A stretch of 64,000 nt of DNA from Bacteroidia bacterium. GTDB taxonomy: Bacteria; Bacteroidota; Bacteroidia; UKL13-3. Position numbers and translations under genes: made by a program. Positions 2,357-45,710 of the stretch are shown here, one piece after another. Each line of letters begins with the position of its first letter. Position 1 is the first letter of the stretch. A model generated the notes under the pieces. That model was not told where the DNA came from. It was given only the letters and a program-made list of their open reading frames with translations, and made no database searches. The DNA lies in assembly GCA_023151275.1 (NCBI GenBank), contig JAKLJI010000004.1, positions 4,946-68,945 of the forward strand, read 5' to 3'.

Positions 2357-3085
2357 TTAGCTGTTATAGAATGCTGATACCCAGCTGGCCGATTGTATAG
2401 CTGCAGTTTCTGTACGAAGAATTGTTCTACCTAATGAAACCGGTTTGAAATGGTTCTCAATAGCTAGTTGCACTTCATCAGGTGTGAAATCGCCTTCCGG
2501 ACCAATTAAAACGAGAATATCGGCGGGTGAATTTAGGTTTGATTGCAAATGCTTTAGTAAGCCTTCGTTTTTTTCTGTTTCAACCCAAGCAATAAATCGC
2601 TCGCAATTCCATGTTTGTTGTAATTTGAAAAAGCTATCAAGTTTTTGAATTTCGCCTAGAATGGGTAGTTTGAATTGCTTGCTTTGTTTTAATGCCGAGA
2701 TGGCAATTTTTTCAAGTCGTTCCAAATTTAAGCGTGAACGTTCAGAATTTTTAGTTTCGATAAAGTACAATTCATCTAAACCAATTTCAATGCATTTCTC
2801 AAGCATCCATTCCATTCTGTCGTTATTTTTGGTGGGTGCGATAGCTAATCTTAATCGGTAGTTTCTTGCGCTGACTTGTGCTTCGATGGAGATTATTTCA
2901 AGTTCACACTTTTTTGGATGATCATTTCTAATGATTGCTAAGGCCAGATTTCCTTGCCCATCCATAATGCGAATTTGTTCCCCTTTTGCCTTTCTAAGTA
3001 CCTTAATTAGGTGTTTTGACTCCTCTTCCGGTAAGGTGATTGACTTGAATTCTAAGTTTGGGTGAAAGAAAAGAAACTCGCTCAT
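2357..3085 (-). CDS. rsmE: 16S rRNA (uracil1498-N3)-methyltransferase RsmE
   Basis: 242 aa. The C-terminal LVLIGPEGDFTPDEV...SLGRTILRTETA motif is typical of the RsmE/SPOUT family. Confidence 0.8.
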   Translation of the reverse strand: MSEFLFFHPNLEFKSITLPEEESKHLIKVLRKAKGEQIRIMDGQGNLALAIIRNDHPKKCELEIISIEAQVSARNYRLRLAIAPTKNNDRMEWMLEKCIEIGLDELYFIETKNSERSRLNLERLEKIAISALKQSKQFKLPILGEIQKLDSFFKLQQTWNCERFIAWVETEKNEGLLKHLQSNLNSPADILVLIGPEGDFTPDEVQLAIENHFKPVSLGRTILRTETAAIQSASWVSAFYNS

Positions 3086-3180
3086 GAAAAGTAGTTAAGG
3101 AGGATTACTAATTACGAAGGTAAGCGAATTTGTCTTTTTGAAATTGAAGTCAAACCCCATGGATTCACCCTAGCTGTTTG

Positions 3181-4089
3181 TCAGAGCTTTTCAATTTCCT
3201 GATTTGAAAGTCCTGTAAGCTTAACAATTTCCTCGGTACTTAATCCCATTTGTTTGGCGTTCCGAGCGGTAGTTTTGAGCGCCTCTACTATACCCTCTAA
3301 TTTTCCTTCGGCAAGTCCTTCTAGTTTTCCTTCAACTAATCCTTCTAGTTTCCCTTCCAATTTACCTTCATCAAATGCAGTATCCATAACGCCTTTTAAA
3401 TCGCGGTAAATTTTTAGGCTGCTTTCGTACTTGTCCATTTCGCTTTGGCCCAATTTGGCTAATTCTGCTTTTTCAAAGGCTTGGTTGAAAACTTCATCTG
3501 AGAAAATGCTAGGGATTTGCTGAAAGTCTTCCAAGTTTTTGATGAAGTAAAGCCATTTGTCCAACCGACTTGCAAGTTCCTGTTCGGCGAGTTTGAAATT
3601 TGGCATTTCGAGGTAAATGAAAGTGAGCTTGTCGTAGAATACCTTTCCATGCTGGTTTTTGAGTTTGATGGTATGCAGCACTTCATGTTTCTCGGGTTCA
3701 GTTTCGTAATCATCAAAAGTGAAATCGAGGATTCCGATGCAGTACACCGATTTTAGTTCGTAGTTCCACTCACCTTTTTCGGCTTGTTCGCGTATTGGGA
3801 AGGTTGCGTAGTAAATTGTTCTGTCTTTGAAGAAGTTTTGCTTGGCCTTTTGAAGTTCTACAATAAACTTTTCGCCTTTTTCATTTTCGCAGTAGATATC
3901 AAAAATGGCTCTTCTGTCGTATTCGGATAAACCCGTTTGTTCGGTATTTCGGAAGTTGAGTTGGTAGATTTTATCTTCAGGAGGCAGGAGTGCATTGAGG
4001 AAATCAATAAGCAAAGGCTTACTAGCTTCTTCTCCAAAGATTTTCTTGAATCCGAAGTCGGTAAAAGGGTTAACGTACTTTGCTTTCAT
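3181..4089 (-). mobile_element. Rpn/YhgA-like PD-(D/E)XK nuclease-family putative transposase with a C-terminal (EGKLx)n repeat
   Basis: The N-terminus MKAKYVNPFTDFGFKKIFG...FDIYCENEKGEKFIVELQ is the hallmark of the PD-(D/E)XK 'putative transposase or invertase' family, which is widespread in Bacteroidetes. The C-terminus EGKLEGKLEGLVEGKLEGLAEGKLEGIVEAL is encoded by imperfect 15-nt tandem DNA repeats at about 3255-3375. Confidence 0.7.
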
Positions 4090-6325: not shown

Positions 6326-8563
6326 ATGCGGCGTACTCACTTTATTGAGCTGGTAAGGCAATTTGCAAGTTCATCTGGCGACTCTATTAATTTTCACGAG
6401 TTGTCGGAAGCAGCTTTAAGTTACTCTGACGAGGCTCCTCAGGATTTTCAACAGTTTGTTTTTCAGTTTCAAGAGATTGCCGATTCGGCAGGCTATCATT
6501 TCCAACTGCGCACGCTGACACCTTCAGATTTATTGGCTTTACTTAAAAACGATAGTTTTCCGCTACTTGTTTTTAAAAATGGAGCTAATACTTTAGAGCC
6601 TTTGTTGATTCAGGGAATAAATTCTGCCAGGTTTAGGCAGTTTGATTCTTGGACAGGTCGGGATGAAACTGAGGTGCCTCTTGATACTGCAGAATTATCA
6701 AAGCGGTTTGCGACTATTTCAACCTGTGTGCGAGATTATGCAATGATTTCAGATTCATTTTCGGAATCGGAAATGCGCGAACAGGAAAGCAGGATTGTAG
6801 TCTTTTCCGGGTTCAGAATTCAGGCCAGTGAAGTAGAACTTCAAGAAAATAGCGGTCAAACCCCAGTAAAGCGCTTTTTTAAGTTGCTTGATTTGGAAAA
6901 AAAGGACATTTATACCATGTACTTTTTTGCCATTTTGGTGGCCCTCATAACTCTCACTATTCCACTCGGAATTCAGGCGGTTATTGGATTGGTTTCGGGT
7001 GGACTTCTTCTTGAAAGTGCTGTTTTGCTGATTATTTTAATTATTTTGGCAACTTTAGGTTCGGGTTGGTTGCAGGTGCAGCAGCTTTCCTTAGTTGAAA
7101 TATTGCAACAGCGTATTTTTACGCGAACAGCTTTTGAATTTTCCTACCGCATTCCGCGCATCAAATCAGAGGTTTTAGATAGACAGTACACCCCTGAATT
7201 GGTAAACCGCTTTTTTGATGTGTTGAACGTTCAAAAATCCTTGCCCAAAATTTTAATCGACTTTGCGAGTGCCTTGATTCAGATTATTTTTGGGTTGATA
7301 CTCCTTTCTCTCTACCATTATAGTTTTATTTTCTTTGGTTTGAGCTTGTTTTTGGCAGTTTCATTGGTTTTTGTTTTTACGGGTAAAAAGGCATTGGAAA
7401 CCAGTATTCAAGAATCGAAATACAAGTACAAACTGGCTTTTTGGCTGGAAGAAATAGGAAGAAGTTTGCATGCTTTTAAAATGGCTGCAAACACCGGACT
7501 TCCAGTAAATAAAACGGATAAGATTCTCGACAAATACTTGTACTACCGAAGAAAGCACTTTGGTATTCTGGTAAAGCAGTTTATGGCAGTAATTGGATTC
7601 AAAACAGCCATTACTGCGGGCTTGTTGATTTTGGGCGCGACACTTGTTGTTAATCGTGAGATAAACTTGGGTCAGTTTGTGGCCTCCGAAATCATTATCA
7701 TGTTGATTATTTCATCGGTTGAAAAAATCATTAGCAATATTTCGAATATTTACGATGTACTAACCGCCATTGATAAACTTGGAACAGTAACCGACTTGCC
7801 TATTGAGCCTGTTAACGGCCGAGTTGCCCGCGATTTGGTTCCTGATGGGAAGATCAAGCTCGAAGTGTCGAATTTAAGTTTTGCTTATCCTGATGCTAAA
7901 AATAATAGTATTGAAGGATTGAATTTTGCCATATATCCCGGAAAGAAAATTGCATTGGTTGGAACCAGTGATTCCGGGAAAAGTACTTTATTGAAAATTC
8001 TCTCTGGTTTATATCACAGCTATGAGGGTGCAATTTTGTTGAATGGAGTTTCTTTGCGTGAGGTAAACTTAAACTCGTATCGGAACCTGATTGCCGATAC
8101 TGGAAATTTGAACGATTTGTTTGAAGGAACCATTGAGGATAATATCTGCATGGGGAATCCGCAGCTTGCATTTTCTGAAATTGTAAAGGCTTGTGAATTG
8201 TCATGTTTGAATACTTTTTTAGGAAATTTGGACAAGGGGCTTAAAACAGAAATTACTCCAGGTGCCACTAATTTCCCGAGTAATATTGGAAAGAAGATAC
8301 TCCTTGCACGGGCTTTTGTTGCCAATCCTTCTTTGATGTTAATTGATGATTTGTTTAATCAAATCAATCAAAGTGAAAAGCAAGAGATTTTGGATCATTT
8401 GTTTGCCAAAGCCGACATGTCATTGCTCTTGGTCAGCAGTCATCCATCTGTTTTAAGGCGCTGCGATGAAATTTGGGTTATGAGCAACGGAAGAATAAGC
8501 TCAAAGGGTAATTTTGAAGAATTGAAAAAGGCCGGATTGTTGGATTTTATCATTTTTGAATAA
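6326..8563 (+). CDS. T1SS-type ABC transporter (C39-like domain, transmembrane domain, nucleotide-binding domain) with degenerate ATPase motifs
   Basis: The track ORF begins at TTG 6311; the first ATG is 6326. An N-terminal about 190-aa C39-like domain lacks an obvious catalytic Cys and His. Six TM helices follow. In the nucleotide-binding domain, Walker A is GTSDSGKST and the H-loop is SSH. The signature motif reads PSNIGKK instead of LSGGQ, the Q-loop Q is replaced by N, and Walker B reads LIDD instead of DE. Confidence 0.75.
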   Translation: MRRTHFIELVRQFASSSGDSINFHELSEAALSYSDEAPQDFQQFVFQFQEIADSAGYHFQLRTLTPSDLLALLKNDSFPLLVFKNGANTLEPLLIQGINSARFRQFDSWTGRDETEVPLDTAELSKRFATISTCVRDYAMISDSFSESEMREQESRIVVFSGFRIQASEVELQENSGQTPVKRFFKLLDLEKKDIYTMYFFAILVALITLTIPLGIQAVIGLVSGGLLLESAVLLIILIILATLGSGWLQVQQLSLVEILQQRIFTRTAFEFSYRIPRIKSEVLDRQYTPELVNRFFDVLNVQKSLPKILIDFASALIQIIFGLILLSLYHYSFIFFGLSLFLAVSLVFVFTGKKALETSIQESKYKYKLAFWLEEIGRSLHAFKMAANTGLPVNKTDKILDKYLYYRRKHFGILVKQFMAVIGFKTAITAGLLILGATLVVNREINLGQFVASEIIIMLIISSVEKIISNISNIYDVLTAIDKLGTVTDLPIEPVNGRVARDLVPDGKIKLEVSNLSFAYPDAKNNSIEGLNFAIYPGKKIALVGTSDSGKSTLLKILSGLYHSYEGAILLNGVSLREVNLNSYRNLIADTGNLNDLFEGTIEDNICMGNPQLAFSEIVKACELSCLNTFLGNLDKGLKTEITPGATNFPSNIGKKILLARAFVANPSLMLIDDLFNQINQSEKQEILDHLFAKADMSLLLVSSHPSVLRRCDEIWVMSNGRISSKGNFEELKKAGLLDFIIFE

Positions 8564-8573
8564 GCACATAGGT

Positions 8574-9935
8574 ATGTTGATGCATGAATTGGATGAGCGG
8601 GGATTACACTCTTTAAGGTTGGTAAATACACCCAACCGCTTTAAATATGTGAGGAATTACCTGCTGGGCTTGTTGGCTATTCTACTATCCATTTTATTTC
8701 TGCCCTGGCAACAAAACGTTCGTGGTAAAGGAAAGGTTACCCCGTTTAGTCCGGCTGATCGCCCCCAAACGGTTCCTTCCGTTATTGGTGGACGTATTGA
8801 ACGATGGTTGGTACAAGAAGGACAATTTGTAAAAAAGGGGGATACTATTGCGGTTATCTCGGAGGTAAAGGAGAAGTTTTTTGACCCGAGTTTAATTTCC
8901 AGAACCAATGATCAGATAAAGCGCAAGGAGGAAGCAGTAAATGCAAAGTATCAAAAAATTGAGGCTACTCAGAAGCAGGTTCAAGCGTTGAAAAGTGGTT
9001 TGAGAATTAAGTTGGAGCAGACCCGAAACAAGGTAAAGCAAATGCGCTTTAAAGTGGAAGCAGAACGGGCATCTTTTGAAGCTGCCAAGGTGAATTTAAA
9101 ATTGGCTCAAGACCAATACACGCGTTTAGAAAGTTTGTTTAATAAAGGTCTGGCTTCTTTAACTGAATTGCAAAACCGGAATAATAAAACCCAAGAGGCC
9201 AATGCCAAATTGGTTGAGGCAGAGAACAAATACAATTCGGTACAGAACGAGTTAATCAACGCAGAAATTGAATTGAATGCCGTGGAGGCCGATTACATTG
9301 ATAAAATTTCAAAAGCCGAAAGCTCGGTGAATGAAACTGCCGGAGAAGTTTTTGAATCGCAGGCAGAAATTTTAAAGATGCGCATTGAATTGAGCAACTT
9401 ACAACTTCGTTCAGGATTTTACGTGATTCGTGCTCCACAAAATGGGTATATTGTAAAAGCCTTGCGTTCAGGTTTAGGCGAAAACATTAAGGAAGGCGAG
9501 AACTTGGTTACCATTATGCCCGCTAATGCGCGAATGGCGGTAGAATTGTATGTTCAGGCTCTTGATTTGCCCTTGATGCACAAAGGAGTAAAAGTACGTG
9601 TTCAGTTTGATGGATGGCCGGCTTTGGTTTTCTCGGGTTGGCCTAATGTATCGGTAGGTACTTTTGGGGGTGTAGTTGCAGCCGTAGATCGCGTAAATTC
9701 CTCAAACGGACTTTTTAGGGTACTGGTAACACCAGACCCGGATGATGAGCCTTGGCCCGACTTGGTGCGAGCCGGTGGCGGAGTATATGGTTGGGCTATG
9801 TTAAATCGCGTAAGGGTTTGGTACGAATTGTGGCGTCAGTTTAATGGCTTCCCTCCAGATTTTGTTCAACTGCTGGAACAGCCAGCTAAAGGTGAAAAAT
9901 CGCAAATGGACAAAGGGAAGGAGGCTGAAAAGTGA
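8574..9935 (+). CDS. HlyD-family membrane fusion/secretion protein
   Basis: A single N-terminal TM helix (YLLGLLAILLSILFLPW) is followed by long coiled coils and a C-terminal beta-domain. It overlaps the upstream ABC gene and the downstream TolC gene; the track start is TTG 8556. Confidence 0.8.
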   Translation: MLMHELDERGLHSLRLVNTPNRFKYVRNYLLGLLAILLSILFLPWQQNVRGKGKVTPFSPADRPQTVPSVIGGRIERWLVQEGQFVKKGDTIAVISEVKEKFFDPSLISRTNDQIKRKEEAVNAKYQKIEATQKQVQALKSGLRIKLEQTRNKVKQMRFKVEAERASFEAAKVNLKLAQDQYTRLESLFNKGLASLTELQNRNNKTQEANAKLVEAENKYNSVQNELINAEIELNAVEADYIDKISKAESSVNETAGEVFESQAEILKMRIELSNLQLRSGFYVIRAPQNGYIVKALRSGLGENIKEGENLVTIMPANARMAVELYVQALDLPLMHKGVKVRVQFDGWPALVFSGWPNVSVGTFGGVVAAVDRVNSSNGLFRVLVTPDPDDEPWPDLVRAGGGVYGWAMLNRVRVWYELWRQFNGFPPDFVQLLEQPAKGEKSQMDKGKEAEK

Positions 9936-20733: not shown

Positions 20734-23700
20734 ATGAGTAAGTATAAAGAGTACAAAAAGCTTGATTTCCCTGCCTTTGAGGAAGAAGTATTAAAAAATT
20801 GGCAGGACAATCAGGTTTTTGAGAAGAGTGTTTCGCTGCGTGAAGGCCAACGATCTTTTGTATTTTACGAAGGGCCACCTTCTGCTAATGGAATGCCGGG
20901 CATTCATCACGTTATGAGTAGGGCGGTTAAGGATATGTTCTGCCGCTACAATACCCTAAAAGGATTTCAAGTAAAGCGCAAAGCAGGTTGGGATACCCAT
21001 GGTTTGCCTGTTGAGATTCAGGTAGAGAAAACCCTTGGCATTACTAAAGAAGATATTGGAAAGAAAATTTCGGTTGCGGAATACAACGAAGCTTGCCGTA
21101 AGGATGTAATGAAATTCACGGACGTTTGGAATAACCTGACCCAGCGCATGGGTTATTGGGTGAATCTGAATGATCCTTATGTTACTTACGACAACAATTA
21201 CATTGAAACCCTTTGGAATTTACTTTCTCGTTTGTTTGAGAAAGGATTGCTTTACAAAGGCTATACCATTCAACCTTATTCACCGGCAGCAGGTACCGGA
21301 TTAAGTTCACATGAACTCAATCAACCCGGAACCTATAAGGATGTAAAGGACAGTACAGCTGTTGCCATGTTTTTGTTGAATGATGCTTCTGCATTAAAGC
21401 CCGAAACAGAGCGAGTTTACATGTTGGCTTGGACAACCACACCTTGGACATTGCCTTCCAATACAGCATTGGCAGTTGGAGCAAATATTACCTATTGCTT
21501 AATCAAAACCATTCATCCACATACCCACGAGTTGGTGAGTGTGGTAATGGCCAAAGATTTGGTAGGAAAATACTTCAAACCTGAGCAGGCGGAACTCGAT
21601 TTTGCAGCCTACCAAGCTGGAGATAAATTGTTGCCTTACCACATCAGTGATGAGTTTAAAGGTGAAGAATTAAAAGGATTAAGCTACCAGCAATTGCTTC
21701 CGTTTGCACAAGTTGAAAATGGCGATGCGTTTCGTGTAATAACCGGTGATTTTGTTACAACTGAAGATGGTACTGGTATTGTACATATTGCGCCTAGTTT
21801 TGGTGCCGACGACTTTAGAGTTGCCAAGCAAAACGGAATTGGCTCGCTAACTTTGGTTGATAAACGTGGTCGTTTCTTGGATTGCGTGCAGGATGGCGTT
21901 TTCTTGTATGGTGAAGAATATGTAAAAGAAGCTTACCTTACAGAAGATGAAAAGCAGAAGGATTTAGCTATTCAAAAAGAGAAATTGAGCTCAGTAATCA
22001 AAGACACTTCCAAGCTGAATTACCTGAGTGTGGATGAGCGTATAATTCTTAAGCTGCAAACCGAAGGCAAACTTTTTAAAAAGGAAAAATACGACCATAC
22101 GTATCCGCATTGCTGGAGAACAGATAAACCCATTCTTTACTATCCACTTGAAAGTTGGTTTATCAAAACCACAGCAGTAAAAGAAAGAATGGTTGAATTG
22201 AATAAATCAATCAACTGGAAACCTGAGCACACTGGAACTGGCAGATTTGGCAATTGGCTTGAAAATCTGGTAGATTGGAACCTTTCTCGCTCCAGGTATT
22301 GGGGAACGCCGCTGCCTGTTTGGAGAACAGCAGACGGTTCTGAAACCCGTTGCATTGGAAGTGTAAACGAATTGCAGGAATGCATTGAAGCCGGAAAAAA
22401 AGCAGGGTTTATGCCTGAATCTTTTGAATTGAAAGACCTGCACAAACCTTTTGTGGATGAGGTAATTTTTCCTTCATCAAAAGGCGAAAAAATGTTCAGA
22501 GAGCCTGATTTGATTGACGTTTGGTTTGACTCAGGGGCCATGCCTTATGCGCAATGGCATTATCCGTTTGAGAACAAGGAAATATTTGAGGGAAATTTCC
22601 CGGCAGATTTTATCGCCGAAGGTGTTGACCAAACACGTGGATGGTTCTTTACCCTGCATGCACTATCTGTGATGTTATTTGACCAGATTTCTTACAAGAA
22701 TGTAATTGCTAACGGACTGGTACTCGACAAGAACGGTCAGAAAATGAGTAAGCGCTTGGGGAATGTGGTGGATCCATTTGCAACCATTGCCAAGTATGGC
22801 GCTGATGCTACCCGCTGGTACATGATTTCGAACAGCGATCCTTGGGACAACCTGAAATTTGATATCGAAGGCGTTGCCGAATCGCAGCGTAAGTTCTTTG
22901 GAACCCTTTACAATACTTACGGATTCTTTGCCATATATGCCAATATTGATGGATTTGAATTCAATCCGGATAAAACCACACCGTTGGCGCAGCGCACAGA
23001 ACTCGACCGTTGGATTTATTCCAAACTGCAAAGCTTAGTAAAGACAGTTCGCCAGCACATGGACGATTACGATCCAACACCTGCTGCACGCGCCATTGAG
23101 GAGTTTGTATGTGACCATTTATCGAACTGGCATGTACGTTTAAGTCGTCGTCGTTTCTGGAAAGGTGAAATGAATGAGGACAAACAAGCAGCTTACGAAA
23201 CCCTGTACGAATGTTTGTTGGTGGTTTCCCAGTTGATGAGTCCAATTGCGCCATTTTTCTCCGATTGGTTGTACAAAAACCTGAATGGGAAAATGGAATC
23301 GGTTCATTTAACGGATTTGCCAGAAGTTATTGAAGCTGCCATTGATACCGAATTGGAGGAGCAAATGGATTATGCCCAGCGCATTTCTTCCATGGTTCTT
23401 TCTATCCGGAAAAAGGAAAATATCAAGGTCCGTCAACCCTTGCAAAAAATCCTTATTCCTTTAATTGATCAGCGGATTAAGGATGAAATTGTACATGTTC
23501 AAAACCTAATTCTTGCCGAGGTGAACGTAAAACAACTTGAATTTATTGATGCCATTGATAAATCAATCAAACCTAATTTTAAAGTATTGGGTAAAAAGTT
23601 GGGCGGTAAAATGAAAGCCGGAGCGGCCTTAATTCAAGCCATGACTCAGGATCAAATTGTTGAACTGGAATCCAAGGGACAATTGGAACTTCAGATTGAG

Positions 23701-41646: not shown

Positions 41647-44262
41647 ATGCTTAAAAATTTACTCTTTAGTTTATTCCTTCTTGCGGTAATTGGCTCAGTA
41701 AAGGGCCAAGTGCATTCCCGAAATGCTGGAGTTACATTTCGCTTTGATGATTACCAGGAGCCTGCCAAGCTTGAGAAAATCAGGACTGTTTTTAAGCAAT
41801 ACGGTTTTCATTTTGTGCATGGAGTAAATCCTTCCAATGCTTACCTCTACGCTGATTCAAATGCCTATTGGAATCTACTGAGAACCCTTCAAGCAGAAGG
41901 CCATGAATTGGCAGATCAAACGCCCAATGATATGACCCATTTTTTCAAGTATCATTTGCCGGAAGAGGCTGCCTATTTTGCCGCAAAGCCTGGAGTTGAT
42001 CATGTGAATACCCTCGAAAAACGGGTTTGTTTGAATTATACCATCAATGATTTTTCGGGAGTTGGAAACGAAAGTCGAGTAACCATAAAAGACAATATGA
42101 TTATCTCCGGAAAAAACGGAGAATGGAATGCCGAGAACACTTGGGGTGATAACTATTTCACCCATTTGTACCTGCCTGCCACCAATCAGGTACTGGGTTT
42201 GGCCTATTTCCACAGCACAGTGCCAAGCGACCCCGATACTGCTTTTGTTCGTTCGTTTTGGGGTGAAACCATCAGCTTGAACAACGCAACAAATGTTGAG
42301 TACCGAAAAATTTCTCCCTTTGATATCAGCATTGCAAACGATGGGGTTAGGTTACTGGCTCAATACAGCCAAATGCTTTTCGCAGCCAATCAGCTTAAGG
42401 CTCCAACTGTTTTTCTTCAACCCGGAAATTCTACTCCGTATCTAAGCAGCAAGCAAGTGCAGGAAATTTATGAGGCAGAATACGGCTATACCTGCGGAAA
42501 TGTCTATCCCCTCAAACAAAATACTTACTTGTTTAGCAATCCGGAAGGCAATAATCATTTCAAAATTCGAGGTGGGGATTTTACCGAGGAATACAATTCA
42601 GTTGCTGAAATCATCAAGCTAATTGCCGATAACTCTGCTTCGCATATTGTTACTGTAAGCCTGAATCACCTCAGTTCATGGGGAGGTGCTGCGCAAATTG
42701 ATGATGTGGTGGCCAAGCTTCAGCAAATTTTGGCCTTTTGCAAAACCCATTCAATTCCCGTAAGAACCTATTCGGAAGTAAATGCCGATTTAAACTTGTC
42801 TTCCGTTTATTCAGCAGAAAACATCTTTCCAAGTCTATCCCGCGACCGTGATGTGGATGGCAACCCCGATGGAATTGTATTGGGTGTTGGAAATTATTCG
42901 CCAAATGGTGGTCCCGATAACCTGCCTTATTTGTCGGGAAACATTGGCGGCCAATTGCTTCGAGTTCCGATTTTAGGTGGATTAACCAAAGGTTGGAACC
43001 AAATGAGCATGAAAACCAAAGGGGGAAAAAATCAATGGGAGAACATTGGTATGTATATGCAATTACCGGAGGCCAATATGGATTTATTGCGGACTTTTCC
43101 GGCAGATACTCCCGATTGGACCACACAAACGGTTTGGTTTTATGTGCCCGAAAATGTGAATGTAATAAGCATTTACTTAAACCTAAATGCACCCCTGGGT
43201 TCAACTATTTATGTGAGCGATATTCGATTAAACGGATACCAATCTCCACAAATTTTGGCGGGTAGATTAGCAAGAAAAGCCAATCAGGCATTTCCGGTGT
43301 TGGATTTAGACAATAAGGTAAAATCAGAAACCTATCTTCCTTCCACCTTAACCTGGGAAATTCTGAATCAAGGAGTTTCCAATACAGCCGAAATCAGAAA
43401 TCGAAATTTGTATGTGTATCCCAATAAGCATTTTCAAACTGGGGAAGACCAGGTTCTCATTCGGGTTTTTCATCCTTCAGATAGCTTGTATGCAGATACA
43501 GCGGTCATAAGTTTAGTGGCAACTGAGGCGGTTGCCTGCAAAAACTGCCGTCAAACCTTGGAGGTGCTTCCTTCACCGGATGATTCGGTGTACACCTGGA
43601 CATCGAGTCCGCAAAGCACCATTCGTTACGGAGCCTTGCCCTATAAAATTGAAGTTCAACCTACTGCCCCAACTACGTTTCAGCTTCAAATTACCAAAAA
43701 GGGAGGTGCCATGGGTTCCCATGCTCATCAATTTAGGTTGAACGATCCCTTTGAATACCCGGGAGGCTCGAAGATGCTTTATTTTGAATCAGCGCCGGCC
43801 TTGGCCATTCCATTAAAGGCAAGTGGACTTCCCAACTTTTACCATACCGTTGCCATTCACAAGAATTTCAACCAGCATCAGGCACAATTCAACAATCAGA
43901 ATTTGATGCCAGATACCCTTTACATCCTTAGAAATGCAGGGTATTCCGGGTTTGATAATTTGGATTTGGTATTCACCAGCCCAAGCTGCGATCGCTTGTT
44001 GTTTACCATTCAAACCAGCACCTATCCGGTTGGATTGGAGGAGCAGGTTGGCAAAAAGCTACAGGTATTCCCGAGTCCATTTACAGAATTGTTGCAGGTA
44101 AAGGGAATTGAGAATGGAAGTTCCTTTGTTGTGTTTGATTTGAATGGACGTTTGATTGCCACAGGTCAGGTTCAAAACGAAGAATTGGAGCTAAAAGGTC
44201 TGGAACCTGGCATGTATGTGTTGAAAATAGGCGAAGGCTATTGCCGGTTGATAAAGAATTGA
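41647..44262 (+). CDS. large secreted protein with a T9SS C-terminal sorting domain
   Basis: Signal peptide. C-terminus LQVFPSPFTELLQVKG...GMYVLKIGEGYCRLIKN. Confidence 0.55.
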   Translation: MLKNLLFSLFLLAVIGSVKGQVHSRNAGVTFRFDDYQEPAKLEKIRTVFKQYGFHFVHGVNPSNAYLYADSNAYWNLLRTLQAEGHELADQTPNDMTHFFKYHLPEEAAYFAAKPGVDHVNTLEKRVCLNYTINDFSGVGNESRVTIKDNMIISGKNGEWNAENTWGDNYFTHLYLPATNQVLGLAYFHSTVPSDPDTAFVRSFWGETISLNNATNVEYRKISPFDISIANDGVRLLAQYSQMLFAANQLKAPTVFLQPGNSTPYLSSKQVQEIYEAEYGYTCGNVYPLKQNTYLFSNPEGNNHFKIRGGDFTEEYNSVAEIIKLIADNSASHIVTVSLNHLSSWGGAAQIDDVVAKLQQILAFCKTHSIPVRTYSEVNADLNLSSVYSAENIFPSLSRDRDVDGNPDGIVLGVGNYSPNGGPDNLPYLSGNIGGQLLRVPILGGLTKGWNQMSMKTKGGKNQWENIGMYMQLPEANMDLLRTFPADTPDWTTQTVWFYVPENVNVISIYLNLNAPLGSTIYVSDIRLNGYQSPQILAGRLARKANQAFPVLDLDNKVKSETYLPSTLTWEILNQGVSNTAEIRNRNLYVYPNKHFQTGEDQVLIRVFHPSDSLYADTAVISLVATEAVACKNCRQTLEVLPSPDDSVYTWTSSPQSTIRYGALPYKIEVQPTAPTTFQLQITKKGGAMGSHAHQFRLNDPFEYPGGSKMLYFESAPALAIPLKASGLPNFYHTVAIHKNFNQHQAQFNNQNLMPDTLYILRNAGYSGFDNLDLVFTSPSCDRLLFTIQTSTYPVGLEEQVGKKLQVFPSPFTELLQVKGIENGSSFVVFDLNGRLIATGQVQNEELELKGLEPGMYVLKIGEGYCRLIKN

Positions 44263-44269
44263 GGATTAG

Positions 44270-44575
44270 GGAATCTTCAATATTTGGTTCTATAAACCTA
44301 TTACCCCTTCAGGGTGAAATTTCGGATTACCATTTCGGTTTCAACTGTACCACCGTTCCGGATTCAATTCTAGGATAATTCTGGAACCTGATTTGGTTGT
44401 TATTTGTAATAATAATCCCGAAGGGATTGCAGGTTTATAGAAATTAGATGGATTGGACGGCAGTTCGACCCCAAAGGGGTCGTAGGTTTATAGCAATGGG
44501 TTAGTCATCAAAATTCGACCCTGAAGGGGTCGCAGAAACCACCGCAATCCCTTGGTTTTACTATGCTTTTCCCTT
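44270..44575. repeat. about 270-bp repeat unit (one copy) carrying REP-like palindromes, on the 3' flank of the Y1 transposase
   Basis: Near-identical to the units at 45295-45690. It contains the palindromes cgaccccaaaggggtcg and cgaccctgaaggggtcg. Confidence 0.75.
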
Positions 44576-44585
44576 GGTCAATTTT

Positions 44586-45047
44586 TTAATCAATCCAATT
44601 GAATAAATACTTTTCATCATGTTCAATTTCAAATTTCTTTAAAAAGTCAATATACTCCTCCTTGAAGGATGTTTTTTTATGATGCTCTTTTTGATTTTCG
44701 ATGTATTTCACCACGGCATCAATTTGTGAATGGCTGTATGAAAATGCGCCATAACCATCCTGCCAACTGAAATTAAACTTGGAAAATTTGTTTAACTGAA
44801 TGAATTCATTGCTACTTTTCTTTATTTCCCTTATCAAATCAGAAAGGCAACAAGAAGGTTTCATGCCTATGAAAATGTGGATATGATCCGCCATGCCATT
44901 TATTGCGATCAGTTTTTGCTGTTTAGCCCTTACTATACCTGTAATGTATTGGTAAAGTCTTTCTTCCCATTCTTTTTCGATTAGGCTTTCTCTCCCTTTT
45001 ACAGCAAATACCACTTGAATGTAAATTTGTGAAAATGTTCCCGCCAT
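44586..45047 (-). mobile_element. tnpA: IS200/IS605-family Y1 (HuH) transposase, RAYT-like
   Basis: 153 aa. HuH motif DHIHIFI, and the size and architecture of TnpA(IS200) / REP-associated tyrosine transposases. Confidence 0.8.
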
Positions 45048-45230
45048 ATTTCTATTTTTTTATTAAGTCAATTTGCACAAGCTGAAAGTCTTTTTAGTTT
45101 AAAATTTATGAAGTGCAATTTACCTTGAATGCTTGGGGAAATCCAATTTTGGCTCCAATAGCTTTGAATTTAAAGGACGATTTTGAGGCTGTTGTTATTA
45201 GGAATAGCAGTACTTCAGTAAAATCGGGCC

Positions 45231-45690
45231 ATGAAATTAAAAAAGGAAAATGGTGGAGGTGATTGTACGACCCCTTCAGGGGCGTGTGAATCCTATTCGC
45301 AATTTGTCCTATAAACCTATCACCCCTTCAGGGTGAATTTTTGGTTCACCATTTCGGTTTCAACTGTACCACCATTTCAGATTCAATGGTTAGATAATTC
45401 TGGAATCTTATTTGATTGCTATTTGCATCTATTATCCCAAAGGGATTACAGGTTTATAGAAATTAGATGGATTGGACGGCAGCTCGACCCCAAAGGGGTC
45501 GTAGGTTTATAGCAATGGGTTAGTCATGAAAGTTCGACCCTGAAGGGGTCGCAGAATTCTACACGCCGATTTGTCCTAAAAACCTATCAACCCATCAGGG
45601 TGAAATTTCGGATTACCATTTCGGTTTCAACTGTACCACCATTCCGGATTCAATTGTTGGATATGACCCATTCAAACAAAAAAGGCGATC
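45231..45690. repeat. about 1.4 tandem copies of the about 270-bp REP-bearing unit on the 5' flank of the transposase
   Basis: A full unit at about 45295-45570, then a partial second unit at about 45573-45690. There is an additional REP-like palindrome acgaccccttcaggggcgt at about 45266-45284. Confidence 0.75.
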
Positions 45691-45710
45691 AACAATTGAC
45701 CGCCTTTTAT
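45675..45710 (-). terminator. rho-independent terminator of lpd
   Basis: On the minus strand: ggcggtcaa-ttg-ttgatcgcc followed by ttttttgtttg. Confidence 0.6.

Follow-up and report, generated by a model that had tools for sequence, protein, structure and literature searches.

The window analysed here, a stretch of 64,000 nucleotides from a bacterium of the class Bacteroidia (contig JAKLJI010000004.1), carries an intact gene for a 153-residue transposase-like protein of the HUH-Y1 type, on the minus strand at positions 44586-45047, lodged between arrays of hairpin-bearing repeats. We think, with a probability of about 0.55, that this is a locus of the REP/RAYT kind ('REPtron'-like; repetitive extragenic palindromes, REPs, and REP-associated tyrosine transposases, RAYTs), built on an enzyme of the IS200 class of insertion sequences (IS) and not on a true RAYT: a resident gene with its own candidate DNA sites. 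The candidate site would be a module of about 130 nt, made of two hairpin-plus-tag elements, inverted with respect to each other around an invariant central hairpin.

The evidence comes first of all from relatives of the protein. Twelve lineages with 73-87% protein identity were examined and the surroundings of the gene inspected; in all twelve, a module of ~130 nt adjoins the Y1 gene and lies in the orientation of the gene. Read in that orientation, it starts with a 6-bp hairpin with a GAA loop (hairpin A), followed by the tag AAAGGTTTATAG and a spacer of ~25 nt; the middle consists of CTA and the invariant central hairpin CGACCCC-nnn-GGGGTCG (CTACGACCCC...GGGGTCG), then a spacer of ~22 nt; and the end is formed by an inverted tag, CTATAAACCT, ahead of hairpin B. 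Across relatives the inverted tag reads TTCTATAAACCT and hairpin B, typically AATCCC-ttc-GGGATT, begins 2-3 nt later. The GAA loop is found on the sense strand in hairpin A and on the opposite strand in hairpin B. In 23 modules, aligned with one another, the central stem and the tags show hardly any variation. When a structure that we specified was imposed on this alignment, 90% of the cells were able to pair, compared to 33-50% with the partners slid. In hairpin A 5 of the 6 pairs, and in hairpin B 5 of the 7, carry compensatory changes, the observed covariation score was reached by none of 500 shuffles, and RNAalifold independently predicts the three hairpins. Judged by these results, selection acts on the structure of the hairpins. 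Between lineages, a change in the tag goes with one in its inverted copy (GG/CC, CG/CG and TG/CA, the paired variants being GGTTTATAG/CTATAAACC, CGTTTATAG/CTATAAACG and TGTTTATAG/CTATAAACA). A covariance model, built from the module alignment and used on the window and the relatives, recovers gene-adjacent modules from four lineages outside its training set (L054, L056, L058-60 and L033), always with a higher score in gene orientation (plus strand) than on the minus strand. The hairpin and tag variants are specific to each lineage while the architecture is kept, which indicates that the repeats co-evolve with the protein lineage. Conversely, one genome scan with the hairpin-plus-tag pattern recovered a 75%-identical homologue of the protein, in the metagenome-assembled genome (MAG) OH_CDB_274. 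At a greater distance, a 58%-identical homologue from Bernardetia repeats this layout; its hairpins differ (GTTGC-aga-GCAAC), and its tag, ATATTTGTAGAA, is a related one. Literature searches yielded no description of these repeats.

One variant of the layout may be recorded here. In L056 (3720-5214), a relative of 76% identity sits within an ABC-transporter operon, in the gap between the permease and ATPase genes, its stop codon overlapping the start codon of the ATPase gene; the module lies upstream of the Y1 gene and the sequence of the central hairpin differs (GCGATGCCttcGGCATCGC).

An earlier note on this DNA, made from the letters alone, had described a 153-residue HUH gene with the motif DHIHIFI and had called it 'RAYT-type'. 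The gene is there as described: the list of open reading frames (ORFs) gives an intact frame at 44586-45047 (-), the only one noted in the interval that runs from the stop codon (44262) of a gene for an 871-residue secreted protein to the terminator hairpin of lpdA, the gene for lipoamide dehydrogenase, and its product matches Pfam Y1_Tnp with an E value of 2.5e-27. The label finds no support. By sequence, the protein is not a RAYT but an IS200-class Y1 enzyme with the signature of 'subclass 1.2'. Indeed, it passes the cut-off of the NCBIfam IS200/IS605 model NF033573 (72.8 bits against 55) and fails that of the REP-associated tyrosine transposase model (REP_Tyr_transpos, NF047646; 23.6 bits against 80). 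Its motif YIENQ is that of class 1, and the class-2 RAYT motif Y---NP is not present (class motifs from PMC6006769). The only sequence matches among solved structures are IS200/IS605 TnpAs (E ~1e-5), with HIH aligned to their HUH motif, KYIENQ aligned to their catalytic Tyr-x3-Gln, and Y115 and Q119 in register with Y127 and Q131 of IS608 TnpA. A predicted structure was used solely to rank folds, because its confidence is merely moderate (pLDDT, the predicted local distance difference test, of 66.6); it places 29 IS200/IS605 chains ahead of the E. coli RAYT structure 4er8, which comes 30th, and its best matches are the TnpAs of ISDra2 and IS608 bound to their end hairpins. The key residues, namely those of the HUH motif (H55-I-H57), W95-Q96, the catalytic Y115, Q119 and H122-H123, were compared across 12 sequences of relatives, and H55, H57, W95, Q96, Y115, Q119, H122 and H123 proved invariant. 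Given these residues and the fold matches, the enzyme looks active and of the IS200 class.

The motifs DHIH, WQ and YIENQKEHH agree, by inspection against the published table, with TnpA_Y1 subclass 1.2 (PMC6006769). According to Quentin, Siguier, Chandler and Fichant (2018; PMC6006769), this subclass consists of proteins of ~150 residues with the motif Y---Q--HH, from Bacteroidetes and Cyanobacteria; they are of low copy number, are scored 'REP: no', do not share IS properties, generally have no terminal secondary structures, are without IS200 ends, and fall outside the RAYT classification of Bertels et al. Beside the gene studied here there is a conserved module, in a clade whose sole characterisation scores it 'REP: no' and as generally devoid of terminal structures (PMC6006769). 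Such Y---Q--HH HUH-Y1 enzymes are common in Bacteroidota: at least 7,999 of 8,000 candidates that were scored are relatives, and databases name the protein IS200/IS605. No relatives were found on viral contigs and just two distant homologues on plasmids; the PADLOC defence models gave no match for the protein.

At the locus itself, the flanking repeats are much as the earlier note had it, which counted one unit of about 270 bp on the 3' side of the gene and about 1.4 on the 5' side: the direct repeats 44284-44537 and 45303-45556 (254 nt, 89% identity), with a third partial copy at 45570-45663, recur with a period of 267 nt, giving 1 unit on the 3' side and ~1.35 on the 5' side. Its palindromes are also in place (seven matches within three mismatches, where 0.06 are expected by chance): CGACCCCAAAGGGGTCG is found at 44466 and 45485, CGACCCTGAAGGGGTCG at 44516 and 45535, and a third, imperfect one at 45266-45284. 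Each unit, however, contains four hairpins and not two, the additional ones being AATCCCGAAGGGATT and CACCCCTTCAGGGTG. A 10-nt tag, AGGTTTATAG, stands beside three of the four and occurs in six exact copies, all at the locus; a 22-nt core is identical in all three copies of the unit, and the counts of hairpin and tag patterns are above the shuffled expectation. Tandem Repeats Finder reported nothing on the window, because fewer than two tandem copies are present there.

All parts of the locus are on the minus strand, like the gene. Between the start codon and the gene-proximal hairpin lies a leader of 215 nt (45048-45262), 213 nt of which are identical in L001, a contig encoding the same protein; the leader probably holds the promoter and the 5' untranslated region (UTR), and a 49-residue ORF on its opposite strand is probably spurious. 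The relatives do not have this leader, and their start codon comes 1-45 nt past the upstream gene or hairpin. The earlier note had set the third palindrome by the promoter. A sigma-70-like sequence, TTCACA-17-TACAAT (45290-45262), overlaps this palindrome; such matches are not above chance, and the promoter consensus of Bacteroidota differs. On its 5' side, the leader is preceded by a gene-proximal partial module at 45263-45340 (covariance-model match 45210-45340, 54.9 bits, E 1.7e-12), which has the hairpin CACCC-TGAAG-GGGTG with the tag TAGGTTTATAG (45309-45336) and then a central-type hairpin at 45266-45284. The latter is the third palindrome, CGCCCCTGAAGGGGTCG on the gene strand; its counterpart in L001 is perfect and belongs to a 215-bp variant of the unit. 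The complete 267-bp unit of the 5' side (45303-45569) was delimited from the repeat families D1/D2, the positions of the motifs and the module match. In gene orientation it is made first of a pair of 23-nt direct repeats, M1 (45349-45394), then of hairpin Ha with its tag (45309-45336), and it goes on with the central hairpin Hd (45535-45551), an inverted tag (tag') with hairpin Hc (45485-45512) and another with hairpin Hb (45433-45459). The full-length module match in this region (45479-45607) scores 105 bits (E 9e-23). The unit shares 98.5% identity with the first one in L001, L002 and L004, and it folds as single-stranded DNA (ssDNA) with z = -3.2. Beyond it, a distal partial unit of ~0.35 (45570-45663; third copy of family D2, 90% identity) consists of a degenerate tag, AGGTTTTTAG, hairpin Ha' and M1 (core 45616-45637). 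The upstream array comes to its distal end 17 nt from the lpdA terminator hairpin (45680-45708), a boundary that is matched in L001.

On the other side, a module directly after the stop codon (44460-44586; 57.5 bits, E 1.6e-11) comprises a decayed hairpin A with its tag, the central Hd (44516-44532) and tag' with Hc (44466-44493); at the equivalent position in relatives, the module begins 2-4 nt past the Y1 stop codon. The rest of the single 3'-side unit (44284-44459), recognized from the motif positions and as the reference copy of family D1, contains tag' with Hb (44414-44440), M1 (44330-44375) and a terminal Ha with its tag (44290-44318). This array stops ~8 nt past the tag, and 21 nt separate its end from the stop codon of the 871-residue gene; it stops at the same position in L001 and L002 despite different DNA beyond.

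All covariance-model matches with E < 1e-3 in the window fall within 44220-45609. The best match outside the locus (21155-21225, 16 bits, E 0.07) lies inside a 1114-residue ORF, has no hairpins and was attributed to chance, and an apparent tag' with hairpin at 44221-44260 is C-terminal coding sequence of the 871-residue secreted protein, a resemblance that is probably coincidental. A derivation of M1 from the 3' end of the gene, as in the loci L058 and L060, was rejected, no similarity being found beyond the shared hairpin. ORFs are called across the arrays at several loci; the arrays were nevertheless judged to be non-coding, because units of 267-269 nt break the reading frame and no protein family matches. 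Rfam scans, run on the locus at E values up to 1 and on five related loci at the gathering threshold, left the module unmatched and returned only a tRNA elsewhere.

At least nine further metagenome contigs code for the identical protein. The Y1 gene appears to be resident and not hopping: it adjoins lpdA on every contig long enough to tell. As the flanking DNA of these assemblies is 96-99% identical to the window, they represent different strains, and their arrays differ in size. Upstream of the gene, the window has 1.4 units of 268 bp and none of the 215-bp variant, with 1 unit downstream; upstream counts are 2.4 units in L003 (no 215-bp variants reported), 3.4 units plus 2 variants in L004, 4.4 units plus 3 variants in L002, and 5.4 units plus 3 variants in L001, which has 2.9 units downstream. 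The range is 1.4-8.4 units upstream and 1-2.9 downstream among strains whose flanks differ by 1-4%, so that the arrays could serve as a strain marker; the view that the units are tandemly amplifiable is borne out. Common units keep their order between assemblies, and L001 has an additional near-duplicate of the first unit. In a separate lineage, three loci encode an identical protein and one upstream module, present in L059 and L060, is absent from L058; this difference does not stem from an assembly collapse, because it concerns a single module between unique sequences.

Many members of this gene family have arrays, and unit length is specific to the lineage: ~60-65 bp in OH_CDB_274, ~135 bp in L016, L045 and L048, ~215 bp in L058 and L060, where the unit takes in the final ~55 nt of the ORF, 268 bp (with the 215-bp variant) in the window's species, and 279 bp in L054. 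The long composite unit, which the earlier note had found unusual, is therefore one end of a range of ~60-279 bp and no singularity.

Several side observations were made on these arrays. Eight other assemblies depart from the window at 0-1 of the 462 nt of the Y1 ORF, and the leader shows 2 differences in 215 nt, in a chromosomal surrounding of 96-99% identity; this suggests either a recent exchange or homogenisation between strains, or a nucleotide-level constraint of unusual strength. The end point of the downstream array is the same to the base in every strain (...AGGTTTATAGAACCRAAT). Past this point, L001 (11302-12101) and L002 (5406-6257) share an 821-nt sequence, 100% identical, with an ORF of 117-129 residues, which is absent from the 64-kb window, where the gene of the 871-residue secreted protein is found instead; synteny breaks exactly at the end of the array. 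At L058 4590-4680 and L060 4155-4245, in the tandem unit downstream of the gene, a truncated hairpin A with its tag is directly joined to a copy of the final ~55 nt of the Y1 ORF (...GTTTATAGAAAA|AATTTGAAATTGAA...); to judge from the junction, which falls at the 3' edge of the tag, this might mark a point of cleavage and joining.

The module can also be found away from the gene. Besides a gene locus whose arrays have units of 60-65 bp, the related MAG OH_CDB_274 holds three isolated modules, situated on different contigs and away from any Y1 gene, in which similarity extends from ~35 nt before hairpin A to just past hairpin B; the module can therefore disperse, at low copy number. In the window's species, the 268-bp unit was not found elsewhere, be it in the 64-kb window, in the flanks of L001-L004 or in a scan of metagenomes with a 21-mer of the unit, which returned two contigs only, both of them the lpdA-adjacent locus. 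Of the proposal that the units form a REP-derived family mobilised by the enzyme, the part that stands is that the hairpin core is tied to the gene family, as seen with the covariance model; the 268-bp unit itself is confined to the locus in this species. Arrays of a hairpin and a tag without a Y1 gene in the 8 kb inspected were seen in other MAGs of Bacteroidota, for example 49-bp units, CGACCCCgaaGGGGTCG + CATGTCTATAG, in L035 (3625-3940 and 5469-5840), and composite units of ~300 bp in L037, a MAG of Hymenobacteraceae (2930-3600).

A REPtron-like locus of this type might work as follows. In the window's species, the module has gained an extra tag and hairpin and a spacer of ~95 nt, giving the 268-bp unit (and its 215-bp variant), and amplified units stand head-to-tail on either side of the gene, without exception in gene orientation. 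By analogy with the TnpAs of IS608 and ISDra2 and with RAYTs, the enzyme may bind the hairpins in ssDNA, and the conserved tag adjacent to them may position cleavage and rejoining by Tyr115. The mirror design of the module, with GAA loop and tag in sense in A and in antisense in B, fits a single protein recognizing DNA hairpins on either strand, and the known substrates of the enzyme's fold likewise point to recognition of DNA. The arrays would change size when excised units are reinserted at the tag of an existing copy, and such copies would pile up locally because the tag is a long and rare target; RecA-type unequal recombination or slippage between units may change their size as well. The anatomy of the locus, the link between gene and module, the covariation of the hairpins, the intact catalytic residues and the differing copy numbers of the assemblies are observed; binding, cleavage and the role of the enzyme in amplification are what we infer.

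A number of points weigh against this interpretation. The protein fails the sequence criteria for RAYTs. In the window's species, the many dispersed intergenic copies that characterize a REPtron were not found, and there is no sign of transposition, since the unit is confined to the locus of the gene; the arrays there might be the work of nothing but recombination. The 600-kb replicon of Bernardetia holds the module at only two places. The repeat of L058 and L060 includes the last ~55 nt of the ORF, which fits an imprecise duplication better than a site-specific insertion. Finally, the copy numbers were read from metagenome assemblies of short reads, in which repeats can be collapsed or mis-walked, and contig L005 passes from downstream units into upstream-type units. 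In this 2.2-kb contig (808-2173), the downstream array leads to units identical to the upstream units of other strains and then to a 215-bp variant, a path that, followed on, would return to the gene; it is either a mis-walk of the assembly or a circular or tandemly duplicated form of the gene and its arrays.

The alternative that fares best, although we hold it to be unlikely, is that the arrays are passive tandem repeats, which expand and contract by slippage or unequal crossing-over only and whose hairpins serve the host, for example as stabilisers of mRNA 3' ends or as transcriptional insulators, the enzyme being uninvolved. The lack of dispersal in the window's species agrees with this, as do the mosaic order of the units, the near-identity of adjacent ones, the duplication boundary inside the ORF in L058 and L060, and the terminator-like score of hairpin Hd followed by AATTTT. 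Most hairpins, however, have no T-run and so are not intrinsic terminators, and a passive origin leaves unexplained why the module tracks one gene family through at least nine genomic contexts in a fixed orientation, why hairpins and tags co-vary with the protein lineage, and why isolated copies exist in OH_CDB_274.

It is rather doubtful that the variation in copy number is an artefact of assembly and the array in fact fixed. Every comparison does rest on short-read metagenome contigs, several of which end inside repeats, and the order of units in L005 suggests a mis-walk through the assembly graph. The units differ by 2-12%, however, and can be told apart, the common ones stand in the same order in independent assemblies, and collapse of repeats cannot produce the difference between L058 and L059/L060.

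That the module would be a structured RNA co-transcribed with the Y1 gene, be it an element of the 3' UTR or a non-coding RNA that partners the gene, is improbable. It is always in gene orientation and begins 2-4 nt past the stop codon, covariation backs its hairpins, and within operons transcription would cover it. On the other hand, no Rfam family matches, modules are found upstream of the gene and isolated far from it as well, it is hard to see what an RNA would gain from the mirror design, in which hairpins A and B have their GAA loops and tags on opposite strands, and the known substrates of the enzyme's fold are hairpins of single-stranded DNA.

Least probable of all is an ordinary IS200/IS605 element whose left and right ends would be the hairpins nearest to the gene, the remainder being locally duplicated flank: the protein passes the NCBIfam equivalog cut-off and bears the corresponding database names, hairpins stand on both sides of the ORF, ~215 nt from it upstream and 53 nt downstream, and the unit is unique to the locus in the window's species, but each of the two gene-proximal hairpins is the other's reverse complement and not a same-strand copy, they belong to a repeated module and are not unique ends, the gene keeps one conserved chromosomal position in all strains, the start codon of relatives, 1-3 nt past the stop codon of the upstream gene, leaves no room for a left end, and the Y---Q--HH clade is described as low-copy and without IS200 ends (PMC6006769). 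Nor does the gene look multi-copy: it is present once in the 64-kb window, and the identical protein is always lpdA-adjacent in other assemblies. The locus misfits the standard IS200/IS605 architecture.

Six of the twelve relatives (73-87% identity) lie within type I restriction-modification (R-M) operons, on three different backbones, with an HsdR of 929 residues, an HsdR of 1027 residues, or an HsdS-only locus. The Y1 loci so embedded are L010 (5999-6601), L016-L023 (5998-6870), L024 (5994-6596), L045 (4844-5738), L048 (4998-6083) and L058-L060. The Y1 gene stands between hsdR and hsdM, or ahead of hsdS, on the strand of the operon, with its start codon 1-3 nt past the preceding stop codon; modules occupy the gap to hsdM or hsdS, hairpin B being ~15-17 nt ahead of the next ATG. 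In L045, two shorter, two-hairpin versions of the module stand at the hsdM/hsdS junction and just past hsdS (7350-7427 and 8682-8760), one of them a compact inverted pair without central hairpin, the other consisting of hairpin A, tag and central hairpin. In L058 (7506-8462), L059 (7042-8145) and L060 (7139-8027), the Y1-containing operon is directly followed by a gene with a Piwi domain (prokaryotic Argonaute), so that these loci look like defence islands. Literature searches found nothing on a Y1 gene in a restriction-modification context. This repeated embedding hints at a role beyond selfish mobility. One may even imagine, as a rather long shot, that the Y1 gene and its module form a self-contained ssDNA cassette, lodged precisely between the ORFs of operons, its start codon 1-3 nt past the upstream stop codon and the trailer of its module adjoining the next start codon, and functionally tied to type I R-M; its possible roles would be that of a defence accessory, or of a switch in which the number of modules tunes the expression of hsdM and hsdS.

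Several known systems can be compared with this locus. The bacterial interspersed mosaic elements (BIMEs) of enterobacteria, tandem mosaics of REPs, are also hairpin repeats of alternating orientation, with intervening motifs and a copy number that varies between strains, but they are scattered over intergenic sites by the hundreds, and their binding proteins are IHF, gyrase and Pol I, whereas the arrays described here are at the enzyme's own gene and have units of up to 268-279 bp. The TnpAs of IS200/IS605 elements, such as IS608 and ISDra2, are the closest class of proteins in sequence and fold, with the catalytic HUH, Tyr and Gln kept, and by analogy the expected substrates would be ssDNA hairpins with nearby cleavage sites. 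OH_CDB_274, where a module encloses the gene and other modules, without a gene, are dispersed, recalls the relation between an IS and its gene-less derivatives (palindrome-associated transposable elements, PATEs, and miniature inverted-repeat transposable elements, MITEs). Unlike these elements, the gene does not appear to be multi-copy, its flanks are tandem arrays, no left and right hairpins on the same strand bound a discrete element of ~0.7 kb, and the gene is often found within operons, 1-3 nt past the preceding ORF. With subclass 1.2 (PMC6006769), the protein shares DH[IV]H, WQ and YIxNQKEHH, a length of ~150 residues with a conserved C-terminal extension, occurrence in Bacteroidetes and a low copy number; the difference is that the subclass was described as 'REP: no', while a three-hairpin module stands beside the gene in 12 of 12 lineages here.

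The REP/RAYT systems of Proteobacteria (REPtrons, REPINs) offer the nearest parallel. As in these, an apparently single-copy Y1 gene at a fixed site is accompanied by its own inverted hairpin repeats; each hairpin has a conserved tag beside it, much as known REPs have their GTAG; the repeats co-vary with the protein lineage, and inverted pairs of hairpins form a larger unit, as in a REPIN; and isolated copies exist elsewhere in at least one genome, that of OH_CDB_274. The differences are that the protein belongs to class 1 (Y---Q--HH) and RAYTs to class 2 (Y---NP), that the module has three hairpins with an invariant central one, that its copies are few and mostly in local tandem where REPs are dispersed by the hundreds, and that in the window's species no copy was found away from the gene. 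With this hairpin-and-tag module, which covaries with the protein, an orphan clade of Y---Q--HH enzymes, so far with no known substrate or role, gains a candidate DNA substrate. If our explanation is true, the REP/RAYT lifestyle, in which a resident enzyme maintains a small population of hairpin repeats of its own, may have arisen twice, once among the RAYTs and once in the IS200 branch of the family.

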